Source of the DNA: a virus
Taxonomy: Duplodnaviria > Heunggongvirae > Uroviricota > Caudoviricetes
Reading direction: 5' to 3' (one strand)
DNA: 14,365 nt
IMG/VR virus record: IMGVR_UViG_3300037420_000666
Under the pieces are notes generated by a model that had not been told where the DNA came from, did no database searches, and saw only the letters and a program-made list of their open reading frames with translations. Shown in pieces: positions 2,573 to 13,119 of the stretch (positions are counted from its first letter, which is position 1; each line of letters starts with the position of its first letter). Both the position numbers and the translations under genes were made by a program.

Positions 2573-3820
2573 TTATGCGGCGAGGGCGGCAGCCCACATG
2601 TCGGGCTGCGTGGCGCCGTTCTGGTAGACGATCTCGGGCAGCACGGTGTCGGCGGTGGGCTCGTCGCCTTCCCAGCCGTCCGGCCACGTCTCGGCGGCGA
2701 TCAGCTCGCGGATGCGCGCCTCTTCCTTGGCGTTGATCAGGCTGATCTCGGGCCGGCGCAGGGCGCGCGCCGCGGCGTTGCACTCGGCCTGGATGCCCAG
2801 GACGCGCTCCAGCGCCATGGAGCGGGCCTCCAGCGTCAGCGGGCCCATGCGCTGCGGGTTCTTGGCGATCGCGCCCGACTTCAGGCGCTCGGCGCCGGCC
2901 TTCTTCAGGCGGTGCTGCGGTTCGCGCAGCTCACGCCACAGCCGCTTCAGCCCGCGCAGCGGCGCCAGGTACTGCCAGTGCGGCAGGGCCAGCACCGTCT
3001 CCAGCGCCTTCTCCTCCTGGGCCAGCGGGCAGCCGATGCAGCCTGTGCGCGCGTTGATCTCCTCGGCCTCGTCGCCGCCGTAGGCGTCCGCGATGGCGGC
3101 CGTGCTCCAGTCGCCGAACTCGGCCGCGGGCGCCCAGTGCTTCAGCCACTCCCACACGTGGCACACGCGCCAGTGCAGCAGCGGCGCGAGGGTTGCAATG
3201 CGGCCGCGCAGACCCTTCGCGTTCGGCAGCACCTGCTGGTACCAGCCTTGGCCGCACTCGGCGCCATCCTTGCTGCAGCTCATTTCGATGCGCCGGTCAC
3301 GGATGGCGCTCTCGCCCTGGCGCACGCCGGTGATCATCAGGAAGTTGCCTTGCAGCTGCAGCGCGTCCAGGCGCTGCTCCAGCGCGTGCTGCATCGGGTC
3401 GATCTTGATCTGCCGCGTGCACCACCTCAGCGTGTTGTTGTTCGGCGGCGGCACACCGCGACCCAGGATGTAGACCATAAAGCGCTTGTCCATGGGCGCA
3501 CGCACCACGTCCACCTGGATGCCGCGCTCGCGCAGCTCGTCCATGATCTGTTCGGCTGCGATGGCCAGCGGCGGCAGCTCCTGGCGCGTGTCGGCGTAGA
3601 AGATGGTCAGCGACTGCGGCGCCGCGATCTGCCCGGCGTCGATCAGCCAGCAGATCATGGTGAGCGTTGCGCTGCTGTCCTTGCCGCCTGACCAGGCAAT
3701 GCCCCAGTGCGGATGGTCCGGGCCGTAGGCCTGCAGCGACTGAATCGTGAGCTCGATGCTCTCGGTCATCTGCAGGCGCTGCGCGGTGGCGTCGAAGAAG
3801 CTGCTCTGTATGCGGCTCAT
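2573..3820 (-). CDS. PP-loop ATP-pyrophosphatase / PAPS-reductase-like protein (DndC- or phage DUF3440-like)
   Basis: Start set at ATG 3820 (MSRIQSSFFD...) with GAGGGAAGGA upstream; the longer frame starts at GTG 3889. Contains the canonical PP-loop SGGKDS (WGIAWSGGKDSSATL) and a cysteine-containing C-terminal half (TGCIGCPL). A 14-nt gap to the next gene suggests one operon. Confidence 0.8.
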   Translation of the reverse strand: MSRIQSSFFDATAQRLQMTESIELTIQSLQAYGPDHPHWGIAWSGGKDSSATLTMICWLIDAGQIAAPQSLTIFYADTRQELPPLAIAAEQIMDELRERGIQVDVVRAPMDKRFMVYILGRGVPPPNNNTLRWCTRQIKIDPMQHALEQRLDALQLQGNFLMITGVRQGESAIRDRRIEMSCSKDGAECGQGWYQQVLPNAKGLRGRIATLAPLLHWRVCHVWEWLKHWAPAAEFGDWSTAAIADAYGGDEAEEINARTGCIGCPLAQEEKALETVLALPHWQYLAPLRGLKRLWRELREPQHRLKKAGAERLKSGAIAKNPQRMGPLTLEARSMALERVLGIQAECNAAARALRRPEISLINAKEEARIRELIAAETWPDGWEGDEPTADTVLPEIVYQNGATQPDMWAAALAA

Positions 3821-6811: not shown

Positions 6812-7480
6812 TCAGGCGGCCAGCGGCATCGGGCGGCGCAGGGCGGCCTCGTGCTGGTCCACCACACGGCGGAAGTCCATCAGGTCGGACTCCAGGGCTT
6901 CGATTGCGTCGTCATCGCGGCGGATGCGCTGGATGAACAGGCTCTTGCCCACCGGTTCCAGCCAGGGGCAGAACACCACTAGGTCGCACCAGGCGCGGCC
7001 GGTGATCCAGAGTCCGCCCAGGATCTGGTCGCGGTACTCGTCGGCCGCGTGGGCCGGGTCCGTCCAGATCAGGCCCAGCTTGTCGCAAGCGGCCGGGCAC
7101 TTGATCTCGACCATGCCCACATCGCCCACGAAGCCGTCCGTGCTGTAGCCGAAGGCGCCGTCGTCGGTGAAGACGATGCCGGCCTCCATGGCCAGCGAGC
7201 CGGTGTGCTGCTCGTAGGCCTCGCGCGCTGCGGGCTCCAGCTCGGTGCCGCGCTTCATGGCCCACGTGACGAAGGTGTCATCCAGCGACGTGCCGCTGAT
7301 GCGCTCCATGGCCAGGGTCCATGCGTACTTGATGGCCTCGCTGCTGGGGTCGCCCGCCTTGCGGTCGCCGCTGGCGCGCTTCAGCTTCGAGCGGGCATCA
7401 CTGAAGCGGCTGGCGGTGATCACGCCGGCGCGCGCGGCCAGCCATTCCTGCGTGCCCTGTTGGACTTGAAGGAAGCGCAT
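6812..7480 (-). CDS. YqaJ-like viral recombinase-associated exonuclease (lambda Exo functional analogue)
   Basis: N-terminal QQGTQEWLAARAGVITASRFSDA is the hallmark YqaJ/PD-(D/E)XK exonuclease opening. ATG at 7480 lies 4 nt after the RecT stop, the classic RecT-exonuclease pair. Confidence 0.9.
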   Translation of the reverse strand: MRFLQVQQGTQEWLAARAGVITASRFSDARSKLKRASGDRKAGDPSSEAIKYAWTLAMERISGTSLDDTFVTWAMKRGTELEPAAREAYEQHTGSLAMEAGIVFTDDGAFGYSTDGFVGDVGMVEIKCPAACDKLGLIWTDPAHAADEYRDQILGGLWITGRAWCDLVVFCPWLEPVGKSLFIQRIRRDDDAIEALESDLMDFRRVVDQHEAALRRPMPLAA

Positions 7481-10516: not shown

Positions 10517-10780
10517 TCAGGCCCCCAGGCGAGCGATCAGCATGGCGTCGGCCATGGCGTAGGCGCGGCGGGCATCGTCAAGACGGCCCGCCGTCGTGCT
10601 GCTCTCGCCGCGCTGCTCCATGACCATCGGCAGCGCCGCGACCGCGAAGTAGTCGCGCAGCGTCATGCCGGCCTGCGCGTGGCTGTAAATCTGCGTCTCG
10701 TGCAGCGTGGCCGGGCGCGCGAACGCCGGCCCGCCGTCGTTGATCTGCTGCGCCGCCCCGGCGCGGGTGGTGTCTGCCAT
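10517..10780 (-). CDS. Hypothetical protein, first gene of the leftward early operon
   Basis: 87 aa, ATG at 10780 preceded by GGAGGA, about 30 bp downstream of the PL-like promoter and operators. Occupies the position lambda N holds, but no N-like arginine-rich motif was seen. Confidence 0.6.
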   Translation of the reverse strand: MADTTRAGAAQQINDGGPAFARPATLHETQIYSHAQAGMTLRDYFAVAALPMVMEQRGESSTTAGRLDDARRAYAMADAMLIARLGA

Positions 10781-10806
10781 GTGTCCTCCGTGGGGTTGAT
10801 GGAGGA

Positions 10807-10835
10807 ATGTTAGGCATAGCCTTACTTGCCGTCAA
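10807..10835 (-). promoter_or_regulatory. PL-like early-left promoter (candidate -35 TTGACG, 17-bp spacer, -10 TAACAT on the minus strand)
   Basis: Minus strand reads TTGACG (top 10830-10835), a 17-bp spacer, TAACAT (top 10807-10812), then GGAGGA and the ATG at 10780. Operator repeats lie in the spacer and just upstream of the -35. Confidence 0.45.
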
Positions 10836-10848
10836 TAGGCTGCGCCTA
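10808..10848. promoter_or_regulatory. OL-like operator pair for the CI-like repressor
   Basis: TGTTAGGCATAGCCTTA (10808-10824; inverted arms AGGC/GCCT around a 3-bp spacer) and the perfect 13-bp palindrome TAGGCTGCGCCTA (10836-10848), centres about 25 bp apart. The 17-mer recurs exactly at 12793-12809. Confidence 0.55.
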
Positions 10849-11006
10849 CTTTTTGTTTGGCGGCGCCTTATCTGCTCGATGTGAAAGGCCCGTCGGGTAG
10901 CGGGCGCAGGAGTGCTGTAGCGCGCCGCCGCACTGCGACGCGCGGCCTACTGCTTCACCGTCCACGCGCTGGCCCGCATTGCTGCGCAGCGCATTCCCCA
11001 GACGTG

Positions 11007-11028
11007 AAAAAGCCCGCACGAGGCGGGC
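11007..11028 (-). terminator. Intrinsic (rho-independent) terminator of the repressor/cargo transcript
   Basis: On the minus strand a GC stem GCCCGC(11023-11028)/GCGGGC(11012-11017) with a 5-nt loop is followed directly by UUUUU (top AAAAA 11007-11011). Lies about 30 nt downstream of the J-domain gene stop (11060) and upstream of the PL region. Confidence 0.55.
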
Positions 11029-11059
11029 GCTTGGCTTGGCAGTGCGGCGGCGGCAGTGC

Positions 11060-11590
11060 TTAGTTTCGTCCGATCCAGCGGATACCAAGCCAGGCCAAGC
11101 CCGAAAGCAATGGAAGCGACAAGTTCAGGGCCAGGAACCCGTTCTCGGTAAGGTTGTAGTCCCATCTCCAGATGACACCCCAGAGCTGCACAGCAACTAC
11201 CCACAGAATGCTGGCAACAATCCAGGCGCGTGTCCGTCGCCTGCACTGCTCGCGGATCGCCTTCAAGCGCACTTCTGGCTTGGCAGCCTCAAGCACCGAC
11301 AGCAGCTTGGCGTGCCCGCCTCCATCTGCATATCGAAGGTAAGCGTCGTACTTCTTGCGCCGCTCCGGGTCTCCGAGGGTGTGCAAGGCCTGCTGAGTGA
11401 GCGCATACCGGGCGGGCGCGTCCTTGCTGCCACAGCCCGTTTTTGGGTGGTAAGTGGCGCTGAAAAAGCTGTGCGCCATTTCTATGTAGTCTTGCGTGGC
11501 ATTCGGCTGTAAATCAAGAACTCGATAGAAATCAACGATTCCATCTGCCCTTTTGAACTCGTCTAATACACGCTGCGCATCCTCGTCCAT
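11060..11590 (-). CDS. Membrane-anchored J-domain (DnaJ-like) protein with HPK in place of HPD
   Basis: 176 aa. Residues about 20-85 align along the whole J-domain pattern (DFYRVLDLQPNATQDYIEMAHSFFSATYHPKTG...ALHTLGDPERRKKYDAYL versus DnaJ DYYEILGV...YHPDRN...AYEVLTDSQKRAAYDQYG). The tripeptide is HPK (codons CAC CCA AAA, top 11441-11449). Two C-terminal hydrophobic segments (AWIVASILWVVAVQLWGVIW, FLALNLSLPLLSGLAWLGIRWI). Lower GC than the flanks; in the repressor-cargo region. Confidence 0.75.
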   Translation of the reverse strand: MDEDAQRVLDEFKRADGIVDFYRVLDLQPNATQDYIEMAHSFFSATYHPKTGCGSKDAPARYALTQQALHTLGDPERRKKYDAYLRYADGGGHAKLLSVLEAAKPEVRLKAIREQCRRRTRAWIVASILWVVAVQLWGVIWRWDYNLTENGFLALNLSLPLLSGLAWLGIRWIGRN

Positions 11591-11645
11591 ACCGCTCCCT
11601 TGTGATTATATTTAGCGAATTAACCTGAAATCAGTTTCGAATTTC

Positions 11646-11657
11646 TCGAATATTCGA
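11646..11657. promoter_or_regulatory. Perfect 12-bp palindrome TCGAATATTCGA with adjacent TTCGAA, upstream of the J-domain gene
   Basis: Located in the AT-rich 78-bp spacer between the 77-aa ORF and the J-domain gene. A perfect TATAAT (minus strand, top 11605-11610) lies 14 nt upstream of that gene's ATG. Candidate regulator-binding site and internal promoter. Confidence 0.35.
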
Positions 11658-11668
11658 TTGCGAGTGAG

Positions 11669-11902
11669 TCAGCGTATTCGCTGAGCCAATTCATCATCAA
11701 GCGCAGCTAACATCCCGCGAGCAAATGTTGGATTCCGATGGGCTTCGCCGCTGGTATTTACAACGAACCCTCGTTGTTTTGTCATTGCGGCGTATGCGAC
11801 CCCTATCACTTCGCCTCGTTCCGCTCGCTCCAGAAGGTTTCTTAAGTCGGCCACCACGTCGTGTGGGGCCTCCTCCCGAACGAGGCGAAACGGAGGCTTC
11901 AT
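11669..11902 (-). CDS. Hypothetical 77-aa protein coupled to the repressor gene
   Basis: ATG overlaps the repressor stop (ATGA at 11899-11902) and is preceded by AAGGAAA. Sequence MKPPFRLVREEAPHDVVADLRNLLERAERGEVIGVAYAAMTKQRGFVVNTSGEAHRNPTFARGMLAALDDELAQRIR; no family recognised. Lower GC than the flanks. Confidence 0.55.
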   Translation of the reverse strand: MKPPFRLVREEAPHDVVADLRNLLERAERGEVIGVAYAAMTKQRGFVVNTSGEAHRNPTFARGMLAALDDELAQRIR

Positions 11903-12744
11903 GACTTCTTTTCCTTGCCGCTTTCATCGGTACGGATGATCCGCTCCATGCCCGGCATGGGGCGGTCGCTGAAGTACTTACCGCCGGGCGGCTGTTCCTT
12001 CTGAACCGGAACAGCGCGCGCGGTGCGCCCGATCCTTTCCAAGAATCGAGGCAATTCCTCCCGTGGTTTTATTTTTCGTGCCGGCACAGGGTGCGGCACG
12101 TAATAGACCCAAGTTACTTCGGTGGGGCTGAAACTTAAAACTTCCGGCGAGTTATAACTTCCAAATCTCCACCCGCCGCGCCGGCTCAGCAGTCGCTTGA
12201 GCATAGTCGAACCATCGGCCAAGCGCACAAGAACGTCATCCTCAAGATCGGGGTCGCTGCTTGGCTCGACTAGCGCATATTCGTTTGGCATGTATTTGGG
12301 GATCATCGAATCTCCGACGACCCGGCAGACAAACGCGTAATCGTCGCTGCTGAGCACCTCGGCAAATTCGGTGGCCTCCGAAAGCCAGTTGTCATCGAAT
12401 ATCCGCTCCGGCATTCCTCCCTGGCAGGTGCCGCACACGTAGACCGGGCGGACGCTGCGCGCCGGGAGTGTCTGAGGCGGAGCACTCTCTGTCGCAACCA
12501 TGACTGACAGGCCAGCACTGACCGTGCCCGGGTAGGCCGTCAGGCCCCAATGCTCCGGCCCAACCACATTTGCAAACAGAGCCCAGAGCCCCGGCAGCTT
12601 CTCCTTCGAGATGGTTCCGCGGTTCACCCAGTCCTGGATCGTCGGCGGCTTGACCCCGAAATGCTCCGCCAGGGCTTTCTTGGTGATGCCCTTTTTTAGT
12701 CTGGCCGCCTCGATGGCTTGCCCTAGTTCGATCCCGGTAAGCAT
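11899..12744 (-). CDS. CI/LexA-like prophage repressor (N-terminal XRE-type HTH, C-terminal S24 peptidase domain)
   Basis: 281 aa. N-terminal HTH (LGQAIEAARLKKGITKKALAEHFGVKPPTIQDWVNRG) and an S24 autoproteolysis domain with Ser and Lys motifs (VVGDSMIPKYMPNEYALV ... DGSTMLKRL). Carries an unusual ~60-aa C-terminal tail. Divergent from a Cro-like gene; AGGA lies 10 nt upstream of the ATG. Confidence 0.9.
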   Translation of the reverse strand: MLTGIELGQAIEAARLKKGITKKALAEHFGVKPPTIQDWVNRGTISKEKLPGLWALFANVVGPEHWGLTAYPGTVSAGLSVMVATESAPPQTLPARSVRPVYVCGTCQGGMPERIFDDNWLSEATEFAEVLSSDDYAFVCRVVGDSMIPKYMPNEYALVEPSSDPDLEDDVLVRLADGSTMLKRLLSRRGGWRFGSYNSPEVLSFSPTEVTWVYYVPHPVPARKIKPREELPRFLERIGRTARAVPVQKEQPPGGKYFSDRPMPGMERIIRTDESGKEKKS

Positions 12745-12760
12745 CGCCTAATGGTCCTGA

Positions 12761-12813
12761 TAAGGCAGTGAGTAGGCAATTCCTTGCAGAATTGTTAGGC
12801 ATAGCCTTATCAT
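12761..12813. promoter_or_regulatory. OR-like operator/promoter region between the repressor and Cro-like genes
   Basis: Contains TGTTAGGCATAGCCTTA (12793-12809, identical to 10808-10824), an imperfect copy TAGGCAATTCCT (12773-12784) and half-site TAAGGC (12761-12766). Candidate rightward promoter: -35 TTGCAG (12784-12789), -10 TATCAT (12808-13), which places the transcript start at or next to the cro ATG (12820). Confidence 0.5.
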
Positions 12814-12819
12814 GGCGCC

Positions 12820-13119
12820 ATGAACGATCCCATCAACGACCTCGGCGGTCCGACTGCGGTGGCAAAGATGCTGTGCATCAAGGCCCCGTCCGTCGTCCAG
12901 TGGAAAGGCCGCATTCCGGCTGAACGGCGCGTGGACCTGGAGCGCGTCGCCTACCCCAAGTTCTGGGTTGAGCGCGCCGGCGACGACGTGCGCTGGCAGC
13001 GCGTGCCCGATCCCGAGTGGCCGCATCCCGATGGCCGCCCTTGTATCGACGTTGCCGCGATGCGCCCCCCGCTCCCCCAAGCCGCCGCCGCAGCTCCCCA
13101 GGCTGTGGCTGCGAGCTGA
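12820..13119 (+). CDS. Cro/YdaS-like HTH regulator
   Basis: 99 aa. DLGGPTAVAKMLCIKAPSVVQWKGRIPAERRVDLERV matches the YdaS/Cro-type HTH pattern (...QW..rG.iPaeR...iE..). Divergent from the repressor across the operator region. No Shine-Dalgarno upstream, so possibly leaderless. Confidence 0.75.
   Translation: MNDPINDLGGPTAVAKMLCIKAPSVVQWKGRIPAERRVDLERVAYPKFWVERAGDDVRWQRVPDPEWPHPDGRPCIDVAAMRPPLPQAAAAAPQAVAAS

Follow-up and report, generated by a model that had tools for sequence, protein, structure and literature searches.

The viral DNA analysed here, a stretch of 14,365 nucleotides hereafter called the window, carries a 17-bp repeat at both ends of its immunity region, which raises the question of whether this repeat is the operator of a lambda-style switch or owes its presence to something else. 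Pattern search of the whole window found the repeat, TGTTAGGCATAGCCTTA, in two exact copies (10808-10824 and 12793-12809), both on the + strand and with 0 mismatches, as the sequence-only reading of the locus had claimed; no third copy was present in the window even at up to 3 mismatches. Dinucleotide shuffles gave a chance expectation of 0.02 copies, with two or more copies in 0 of 200 shuffles. The exact core AGGC-N3-GCCT occurs three times in the 14.4 kb, always within the two regulatory regions, and all seven TWAGGC hexamers of the window lie inside the same two stretches of about 80 bp each.

When the motif is extended to the 15-bp palindrome TTAGGC-N3-GCCTAA (TTAGGCNNNGCCTAA) with up to 2 mismatches, five copies are found against 0.15 expected (0/200 shuffles). 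They start at 10810, 10835, 10856, 12737 and 12795, all in the two regulatory regions, three of them ahead of the leftward operon (OL1-3), the other two at OR (OR1 and the site at the repressor ATG). The related sites listed by the sequence-only reading, TAGGCTGCGCCTA at 10836-10848, TAGGCAATTCCT at 12773-12784 and TAAGGC at 12761-12766 (an orphan half-site on the + strand), were recovered both by reading the sequence and by pattern search, but that list had overlooked two more sites, at 10856-10870 (TTTGGCGGCGCCTTA) and 12737-12751 (GTAAGCATCGCCTAA).

The genes around these sites have the arrangement expected from the earlier calls, which Pfam bore out: a leftward 281-aa protein with HTH_3 and Peptidase_S24 domains (the repressor, 11899-12744, - strand) and a divergent 99-aa protein of the P22_Cro/YdaS family (12820-13119, + strand, probably leaderless), the latter sharing 38% identity with YdaS (E 5e-8). 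On the - strand the repressor is followed by a 77-aa gene of no assigned function overlapping its stop codon (11669-11902) and by a 176-aa J-domain (DnaJ) protein (11060-11590), the last gene of the repressor operon. A terminator-like hairpin with a T-run, found by terminator scan at 11012-11028 on the - strand, would end this operon ahead of OL. Beyond OL, the leftward operon opens with an 87-aa gene (10517-10780, - strand) that has GGAGGA 4-9 nt before its ATG; RecT and YqaJ-type genes for recombination follow further along. When the immunity region and the entire window were compared with GenBank phages by BLAST, the only matches were a weak one to the repressor gene and one PAPS-reductase gene, and no related immunity region was found.

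The repressor comprises a RacR-type HTH (aa 1-66), a disordered linker, an S24 domain (about aa 98-227) and a disordered tail. Its residues 1-72 are homologous to the DNA-binding domain of E. coli RacR (BLASTP, 56% identity over 72 aa, E 5e-27), and its N-terminal half alone matches the NCBIfam RacR model NF049929 (positions 1-81 of 150, E 4.6e-26). The full-length score of 91.9 bits stays below the equivalog cut-off of 200 bits, because the C-terminal half is an S24 domain and not the helical domain of RacR. Pfam identifies this half as Peptidase_S24 (E 4e-11), Ser146 and Lys183, which form the S24 Ser/Lys dyad, are invariant in 15 homologues, and the predicted fold of the domain has lambda CI and LexA as best matches. 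Its assignment as a CI/LexA-like, putatively self-cleaving domain is thus supported by the Pfam match, the invariant dyad and the predicted fold. The N-terminal domain, for its part, matches the RacR model and not the N-terminal domain of lambda CI; in a PDB sequence search it gave only weak generic HTH matches, with no phage repressor among them and no solved RacR-type domain. An IMG/VR protein search with the full repressor as query returned zero relatives, and a protein search with the N-terminal domain alone returned at least four short proteins.

RacR operators, with the form (T/A)TAGGC-n3-GCCTA(T/A), have been defined by DNase I footprinting with purified RacR (PMC9638921), and EMSA with RacR showed three complexes (PMC5700373). 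The half-site TAGGC-N3-GCCTA, put forward beforehand as the recognition sequence of the window repressor, is the same as this footprinted operator, and the DNA-binding domain of that repressor is of the RacR type. The operator family is therefore already known, a point that the sequence-only reading had not recognised. By homology with RacR, the repressor of the window phage would be expected to bind these sites, and its recognition sequence can be predicted from a footprinted system.

At the leftward end, a promoter scan called a candidate early promoter, PL (10807-10835, - strand, 9/12), with a -35 TTGACG (10835->10830), a 17-nt spacer and a -10 TAACAT (10812->10807). OL1, the exact 17-mer at 10808-10824 (15-bp operator 10810-10824), sits in the PL spacer and overlaps its -10, so the overlap of operator and promoter proposed for this side agrees with the scan. 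OL2 (10835-10849, ATAGGCTGCGCCTAC), which has perfect TAGGC/GCCTA arms, abuts the PL -35 and is 25 bp from OL1, centre to centre. OL3 (10856-10870) is a weaker site, 21 bp from OL2.

At the rightward end, the candidate promoter PR (12784-12813, + strand) was assigned by family alignment and by homology to the mapped PydaS promoter, which has the elements TTGACA/TAATAT (PMC9638921). Its -35 TTGCAG (12784-12789) and -10 TATCAT (12808-12813) are 18 nt apart and resemble the sigma-70 consensus poorly (8/12, under the threshold of the scan, which did not call it), so that the proposed overlap with the operator holds here by eye and by homology, not by scan. The predicted start, at about 12820, coincides with the cro ATG. 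OR1, the exact 17-mer at 12793-12809 (15-bp operator 12795-12809), occupies the spacer of PR and overlaps its -10. OR2 (12772-12786, GTAGGCAATTCCTTG) has an intact left arm and a degenerate right arm, departs from the palindrome at 4 positions and overlaps each of the two divergent candidate promoters at its -35. Its core, TAGGCAAT[T/G][C/G]CT, is kept across related loci, and the triplet is invariant in the selected OR2 sites, a conservation that could come from the -35 role alone. An 11-mer equal to the OR2 core, AGGCAATTCCT, also lies at 12049-12059, within the coding sequence of the repressor; a second copy of this kind is absent from all other loci, and the one in the window is probably due to chance. 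OR3, the site at 12737-12751 (GTAAGC-ATC-GCCTAA), is centred on the repressor start codon (12742-12744). A candidate leaderless repressor promoter resembling P_RM is suggested by the sequence and the family alignment at 12751-12779 on the - strand, with a -35 TTGCCT (12779->12774) inside OR2, a 17-nt spacer and a -10 GACCAT (12756->12751) placed 6 nt from the A of the repressor ATG. Both divergent genes, repressor and cro, would thus probably be leaderless.

To compare this arrangement with that of other phages, related loci were collected by a back-translated scan of genome and metagenome contigs in which the RacR-type N-terminal domain was the sole criterion. A total of 133 loci were scanned, 54 from genomes and 79 from metagenomes (80 metagenome loci having been fetched). 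The 54 genome loci hold 187 sites, 86 of them at -150 to +20 of the repressor ATG and 96 downstream of the repressor, mostly as pairs with a spacing of 24-25 bp; the cro side has the other 5, in about 290 kb. The 79 metagenome loci show the same distribution. Over the 133 loci, the sites recur near positions -60, -35 and 0 as counted from the repressor ATG, with a second cluster, the pair 24-25 bp apart, on a leftward promoter that lies downstream of the repressor. Among 47 unique loci, the sequence at the repressor start, TTAGGC(A)ATG, hardly varies. More than 100 loci keep the operator layout, so the two-cluster OL/OR arrangement, initially proposed from the window, is supported by its recurrence in relatives of many genera, E. 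coli K-12 Rac among them. The repressor family is large and mosaic (hosts include Pseudomonas, Burkholderiales, Xanthomonadales and Nitrosomonas), its RacR-type DNA-binding module being followed in some members by S24 and in others by different C-terminal domains; these classes were assigned by regular expression, a crude procedure that undercounts S24 variants and gives a lower bound.

Across the related loci the arms of the sites are conserved while the central triplet varies. The A/T at position ±8 is also conserved, although it lies outside the pattern used for site selection, in agreement with the published ATTAGGC monomer logo. The window's own repressor recurs in three contig copies, each 100% identical to the window; within-lineage variation is therefore absent and these copies carry no footprinting information. 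A further relative is the locus L038, from a different phage whose repressor is 57% identical and which has no nucleotide similarity to the window detectable by blastn. It conserves the 77-aa gene beside the repressor and carries the same sites with arms kept and triplets changed, a comparison that is not fully independent because flanking sequence, too, is common to the OL regions of both phages. OL1 has homologous sites in L038 and in K-12 Rac; at the OL2 position L038 has TAGGCGCAGCCTA, with identical arms and a different triplet; and OL3 is conserved there as TTTGGCAGCGCCTCA, a third site being present also in the locus L069.

Could these sites be something other than operators? A generic dispersed (REP-like) or chance repeat lacking any regulatory role has next to no probability left. 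The exact 17-mer does have 34 occurrences in the IMG/VR viral contig collection, but these are single copies in unrelated contigs, about the number estimated to arise by chance for a 17-mer at that collection size. Within the window, the motif does not occur outside 2 x 80 bp, and the cro-side flanks of the related loci hold about 13 background matches in some 554 kb, against hundreds at the expected positions. Nor does it seem at all likely that the palindromes work as hairpins in RNA or DNA, for instance as intrinsic terminators. The terminator scan flags OL2 with its T-run (10836-10848, + strand) and the equivalent Rac sites, yet the stems are of just 5 bp with a 3-nt loop, no + strand gene reads into OL2 and its T-rich linker is on the non-transcribed side. 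In the RacR system, moreover, A/T-rich linkers between operators were interpreted as bendable DNA (PMC9638921). The terminator assignment was rejected.

A further explanation, which we regard as quite unlikely, is that the 17-mer is shared as core promoter sequence, for example after duplication of a promoter cassette, and binds no protein as an operator. Both copies do sit in promoter spacers and supply bases to the -10, and at OL the window and L038 can be aligned beyond the sites. However, both 17-mers read the same way on the + strand and the promoters point in opposite directions, which makes the copies inverted with respect to the promoters, whose -10 hexamers differ (TAACAT and TATCAT). 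In addition, it is the symmetric arms that are conserved between phages while the central triplet changes, more copies exist beyond the promoter cores (OL2, OL3 and the ATG site), and the same motif is footprinted by RacR. The sites might instead serve mainly the Cro-like YdaS homologue, or some other early protein, with the S24 repressor recognising something else. Cro and the repressor share their operators in lambda-type switches, and the Rac papers report that YdaS, too, has binding sites in the intergenic region and that it represses PydaST. Against this, the motif tracks the RacR-type N-terminal domain by which alone the loci were collected, the footprint was obtained with purified RacR, and the two regions contain no other repeated palindrome, which leaves this alternative improbable, if less so than the preceding one.

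Operator function is thus the preferred explanation: the two 17-mers are very probably, as judged from the sequence, OL1 and OR1, the operators nearest the promoters in a lambda-style switch between lysis and lysogeny that is governed by a repressor with a RacR-type HTH. For the window phage we infer binding itself, the order of site filling, cooperativity or looping, the leaderless starts and SOS induction, which would combine as follows. The repressor, as a dimer, would recognise a palindrome of 15-17 bp, (A)TTAGGC-N3-GCCTAA(T). In a lysogen, occupation of OR1 on the rightward cro promoter and of OL1 on the leftward early promoter, both between -35 and -10, would keep the two lytic operons off, while the flanking OL2, OL3 and OR2, 21-25 bp away, would be filled cooperatively. 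These spacings, and the 1985 bp between OL1 and OR1, are compatible with cooperative binding and OL-OR looping. At high repressor levels, OR2 over the -35 of the repressor promoter and OR3 over its start codon would provide negative autoregulation; this intergenic region is probably also a target of the Cro-like YdaS homologue. As the S24 domain has the conserved Ser/Lys dyad, RecA-stimulated self-cleavage is proposed for induction: DNA damage would trigger it, separating the DNA-binding and dimerisation domains and inducing the prophage.

The central triplet deserves separate mention. Identity of the OR1 triplet with an OL triplet is far commoner inside one phage than between phages: it holds in 11 of 22 cases against 3.3 expected (P ~5e-5) and, after the most conservative de-duplication, in 5 of 12 against 1.3 expected (P ~0.004), the window's exact 17-mer being one instance of this match. 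It is conceivable, and we suggest it only tentatively, that the presumably uncontacted triplet of RacR-type operators is not free. If the match reflected selection and not gene conversion, the triplet would tune affinity by indirect readout and could determine immunity specificity, which matters because the TTAGGC half-site is common to more than 100 phages of Beta- and Gammaproteobacteria, whose repressors have almost identical recognition helices.

In summary, the window switch is a new case of the known RacR-type switch and not a new mechanism, and the general understanding of such switches is unchanged by it. What is gained is the annotation of the window (a repressor, a Cro analogue, 6 operator sites, 3 candidate promoters and 1 terminator) and the extension of the RacR operator code (A)TTAGGC-N3-GCCTAA(T) beyond enterobacteria, the papers cited here having examined it in Enterobacteriaceae only. 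With RacR/YdaS the window shares a homologous DNA-binding domain, the half-site with its 3-bp spacer and flanking A/T, and the intergenic inverted repeats (OR1 and, with one degenerate arm, OR2). The divergent YdaS/Cro-type gene has an operator in the spacer of its candidate promoter, as RacR O1 lies on PydaS, and OR3 has its counterpart in a RacR operator with an n3 spacer overlapping the racR ATG; a leaderless promoter, PracR3, was mapped in Rac, and isolated monomer sites were also seen in the RacR footprint (PMC9638921). The repressor transcript is likely leaderless in the window too. Also common to both is the pair of sites on the leftward promoter downstream of the repressor: in K-12 Rac such a pair lies upstream of ydaG on TTGACA-17-TATAGT, with the geometry of OL on PL. 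This Rac pair is absent from the published descriptions of RacR operators (PMC9638921, PMC5700373) and would account for the joint derepression, with ydaS, of ydaG, ydaF and kilR (40-70-fold) reported upon disturbed RacR control (PMC11014345). The window differs in its CI/LexA-type S24 domain in place of the helical domain of RacR, in having three OL sites, located 2 kb away past a three-gene repressor operon, in its probably leaderless cro with no YdaT/CII homologue identified, and in its host, a high-GC and probably betaproteobacterial one instead of an enterobacterium.

Lambda, with its CI/Cro switch and its OL and OR (structures 3bdn and 8gmu), is the other natural reference. As in lambda, repressor and cro diverge, the leftward operon carries recombination genes, and tandem operators about 2.2-2.4 helical turns apart lie in two clusters (three sites in 10810-10870, three in 12737-12809) on divergent candidate early promoters separated by about 2 kb. 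The repressor's own promoter would be under the control of one operator, and the predicted S24 fold is closest to lambda CI. In contrast, the DNA-binding domain and operator sequence are unrelated to those of lambda, the window sites being 15-17 bp with a 3-bp unspecified centre, and OR2 is centred at about -35, on the -35 of the candidate repressor promoter, whereas the lambda site is at about -42, next to it; activation by bound repressor is therefore not expected. The likeness to phages 434 and P22 is one of operator pattern, HTH kinship having been approached only through the PDB search, in which no phage repressor was matched. In 434 and P22, central base pairs that are not contacted are read indirectly, and their operators and those of the window family alike have conserved symmetric arms around a variable centre, which in the window family appears to be non-random.

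The 17-mer TGTTAGGCATAGCCTTA that the sequence-only reading placed at both ends of the immunity region occurs without mismatch at 10808-10824 and 12793-12809, with 0.02 copies expected by chance and none of 200 shuffles containing two; a pattern search allowing up to three mismatches revealed no further copy in the window. When the site was generalised to the palindrome TTAGGC-N3-GCCTAA, counting copies with at most two mismatches, five were found versus 0.15 expected. Three lie upstream of the leftward operon (starting at 10810, 10835 and 10856; OL1 to OL3) and two in the divergent intergenic region (12737, OR3; 12795, OR1), where a sixth site, OR2 (12772-12786, GTAGGCAATTCCTTG), has one arm intact. 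All seven TWAGGC hexamers of the window fall within two ~80-bp stretches holding operator sites. The other elements listed by the earlier reading were likewise located, its inventory being correct in what it included while overlooking OL3 and OR3, the latter having the repressor ATG at its centre. The OR2 core (12774-12784) recurs as AGGCAATTCCT towards the 3' end of the repressor gene (12049-12059), probably by chance, since such a second copy is absent from all other related loci.

The right-hand sites are flanked by the genes for a 281-aa repressor with HTH_3 and Peptidase_S24 domains (11899-12744, minus strand) and a 99-aa Cro-like protein of the P22_Cro/YdaS family (12820-13119, plus strand). 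OR1 fills the spacer of the candidate rightward promoter PR, from TTGCAG (12784-12789) to TATCAT (12808-12813). On the left, OL1 fills the spacer of the sigma-70-like candidate PL (TTGACG-17-TAACAT, 10835->10807, minus strand), OL2 abuts its -35, and the operon behind it extends to RecT and YqaJ genes. Downstream of the repressor, a minus-strand gene (11669-11902) overlaps the repressor stop codon (ATGA); its 77-aa product has no match in Pfam, NCBIfam or PHROG, is 49% identical to that of the gene following the repressor (6879-7136) in L038, the nearest different phage, and is, judging from sequence, conserved as a partner of repressors of this type. The repressor operon also includes a gene (11060-11590, minus strand) whose 176-aa product begins with a J-domain (DnaJ), and which may be an accessory gene expressed in lysogeny. 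It is followed by a terminator-like hairpin (11028->11012, minus strand), with PL ~140 bp beyond. The GC content of the immunity region (11000-12800) is 46-60%, versus 68% for the whole window, which fits a horizontally exchanged module. Elsewhere, a PAPS-reductase/DndC-like gene (2651-3798) is the sole part of the window ~80% nucleotide-identical to known phages, namely Pseudomonas phages D14A, Dobby and phiC725A.

The window is part of a metagenomic contig of 45 kb, and two other contigs, being identical to it, add no information; no similar immunity region was found among GenBank phages. The L038 repressor is 57% identical overall and ~80% in the N-terminal domain, and blastn detected no nucleotide similarity between L038 and the window. 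The same sites nevertheless occupy the same places in L038 (TAGGCAATTCCT and TTAGGCGTTGCCTTATCAT at OR; TGTTAGGCATTGCCTTA, TAGGCGCAGCCTA and TTTGGCAGCGCCTCA at OL), with the arms kept and the central triplets changed. Using the N-terminal domain as sole query, 53 loci were gathered from species-representative genomes (Pseudomonas, Cupriavidus, Achromobacter, Bordetella, Comamonas, Sphaerotilus, Nitrosomonas, Lysobacter, Escherichia, Klebsiella, Proteus, Morganella and Erwinia), together with 80 metagenome loci. In nearly all of them the motif lies near positions -60, -35 and 0, counted from the repressor ATG, and it recurs as two copies spaced 24-25 bp, located 0.55-6 kb downstream of where the repressor gene starts; on the cro side of the collected loci, 554 kb contained a background of 13 hits. 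The three bases at the centre of OR1 and OL sites contribute little information. Position +/-8 is A/T-biased though unused in site selection, and the site therefore extends to 17 bp. In two loci, L039 and L040, a further operator-like site (TGAGGCTATGTCTAA and TGAGGCTATGGCTAA, respectively) lies ~77 bp upstream of the repressor's start codon; its 3-bp spacer holds the cro ATG, mirroring the site over the repressor ATG.

The triplets follow a regularity of their own. In 11 of 22 non-redundant loci the OR1 triplet also occurs at an OL site of that phage (3.3 expected by permutation, P ~5e-5), and in 5 of 12 versus 1.3 expected (P ~0.004) when one locus per triplet class is retained; the exact TGTTAGGCATAGCCTTA pair of the window is one such case. 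Indirect readout, gene conversion or shared descent could each be the cause.

Among the OR2 sites that were selected the triplet does not vary, unlike those of other sites, which would be explained by TTGCCT within OR2 belonging to the candidate repressor promoter. On the repressor strand (12744-12779, minus) this hexamer is followed by 17 nt, GACCAT, 6 nt and the ATG. Among 47 unique loci, ATTGCC at -37 to -32 and the AT of ATTAGGC at -8/-7 are conserved at a fixed distance from the ATG, and the repressor mRNA is probably leaderless. For cro, the window (12808-12822) has the ATG 7 nt past the -10 TATCAT, with no Shine-Dalgarno sequence, and ~20 betaproteobacterial and Xanthomonadales loci (L038, L041-L043, L045, L048, L055, L064, L071-L075 and L081-L085 have window-like starts) place it 9-12 nt past the operator end, also with no Shine-Dalgarno sequence. 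Such an arrangement implies a putative leaderless cro mRNA in the window and these relatives. Pseudomonas and enterobacterial loci have a cro leader with a Shine-Dalgarno sequence.

In the AlphaFold model of the repressor, aa 1-66 form a confidently predicted N-terminal domain of five helices, which a disordered linker joins to a beta-rich domain followed by a disordered tail; the top PDB fold matches of the model are lambda repressor and LexA. Homologues show no variation at Ser146 and Lys183. The ~40-residue tail past the S24 domain (aa 242-281) is predicted to be disordered, and many homologues have similar variable tails. The C-terminus is of the S24 kind in at least 21 of 54 genome-derived loci (L038 and the 53 of the scan), the remainder carrying RacR-type or further C-terminal domains. 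At least three C-terminal kinds accompany the RacR-type DNA-binding domain (proteins P0122-P0124; loci L039-L091): an S24 peptidase, the helical domain of RacR and a ~60-aa domain ending in RFLKR. One DNA-binding module is thus combined with different partner domains across phages, which indicates domain shuffling among prophage repressors.

In the mechanism that we propose, repressor bound to OR1 and OL1 would block PR and PL, respectively, and sites next to these, at distances of 21-25 bp, would be occupied through cooperative binding. Occupancy of OR2 and OR3 would repress the repressor's own, probably leaderless, promoter, as suggested by the candidate promoter geometry, in which OR2 holds the -35; this agrees with the protection by RacR of the corresponding Rac region only at higher concentrations (PMC9638921). 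RecA-dependent induction is predicted from the S24 domain.

The closest characterised system is that of the Rac prophage, to which the E. coli loci of the collected set belong. RacR, YdaS and YdaT are treated as analogues of CI, Cro and CII, respectively (PMC11879457). In EMSA the racR-ydaS intergenic region forms three complexes with purified RacR (PMC5700373), and the DNase I footprints of RacR there yielded a monomer motif, ATTAGGC, and operators of the form (T/A)TAGGC-n3-GCCTA(T/A), with O1 on the mapped PydaS promoter (TTGACA / TAATAT), the spacer of one operator overlapping the racR ATG and the strongest racR promoter producing a leaderless transcript (PMC9638921). The recognition sequence predicted from the window alone thus equals this operator, and the proposed OL/OR-style switch is supported. 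The feature is real and was correctly interpreted, but belongs to an operator family already characterised experimentally. K-12 Rac itself (L092 2127-2169; NC_000913.3 ~1419626-1419668) carries an OL-like pair of RacR-type sites, ATAGGTAATGCCTAA and ATAGGCTATGCCTAA, spaced 25 bp, on a leftward promoter of near-consensus sequence (TTGACA-17-TATAGT) that lies upstream of ydaG, between this gene and racR. The RacR papers searched make no mention of this pair; ydaG, ydaF and kilR are derepressed 40-70-fold along with ydaS, in a study terming the RacR regulon uncharacterised (PMC11014345). The Cro-like protein shares 38% identity with YdaS, and repressor aa 1-72 are 56% identical to RacR aa 1-77 (E 5e-27). 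By sequence criteria the repressor is not a RacR equivalog, because only half of it aligns to the NCBIfam RacR model (positions 1-81; 91.9 bits, below the cut-off of 200) and its C-terminal half is an S24 domain. The window repressor thus resembles RacR in its DNA-binding domain, but differs from it in having an S24 C-terminal half.
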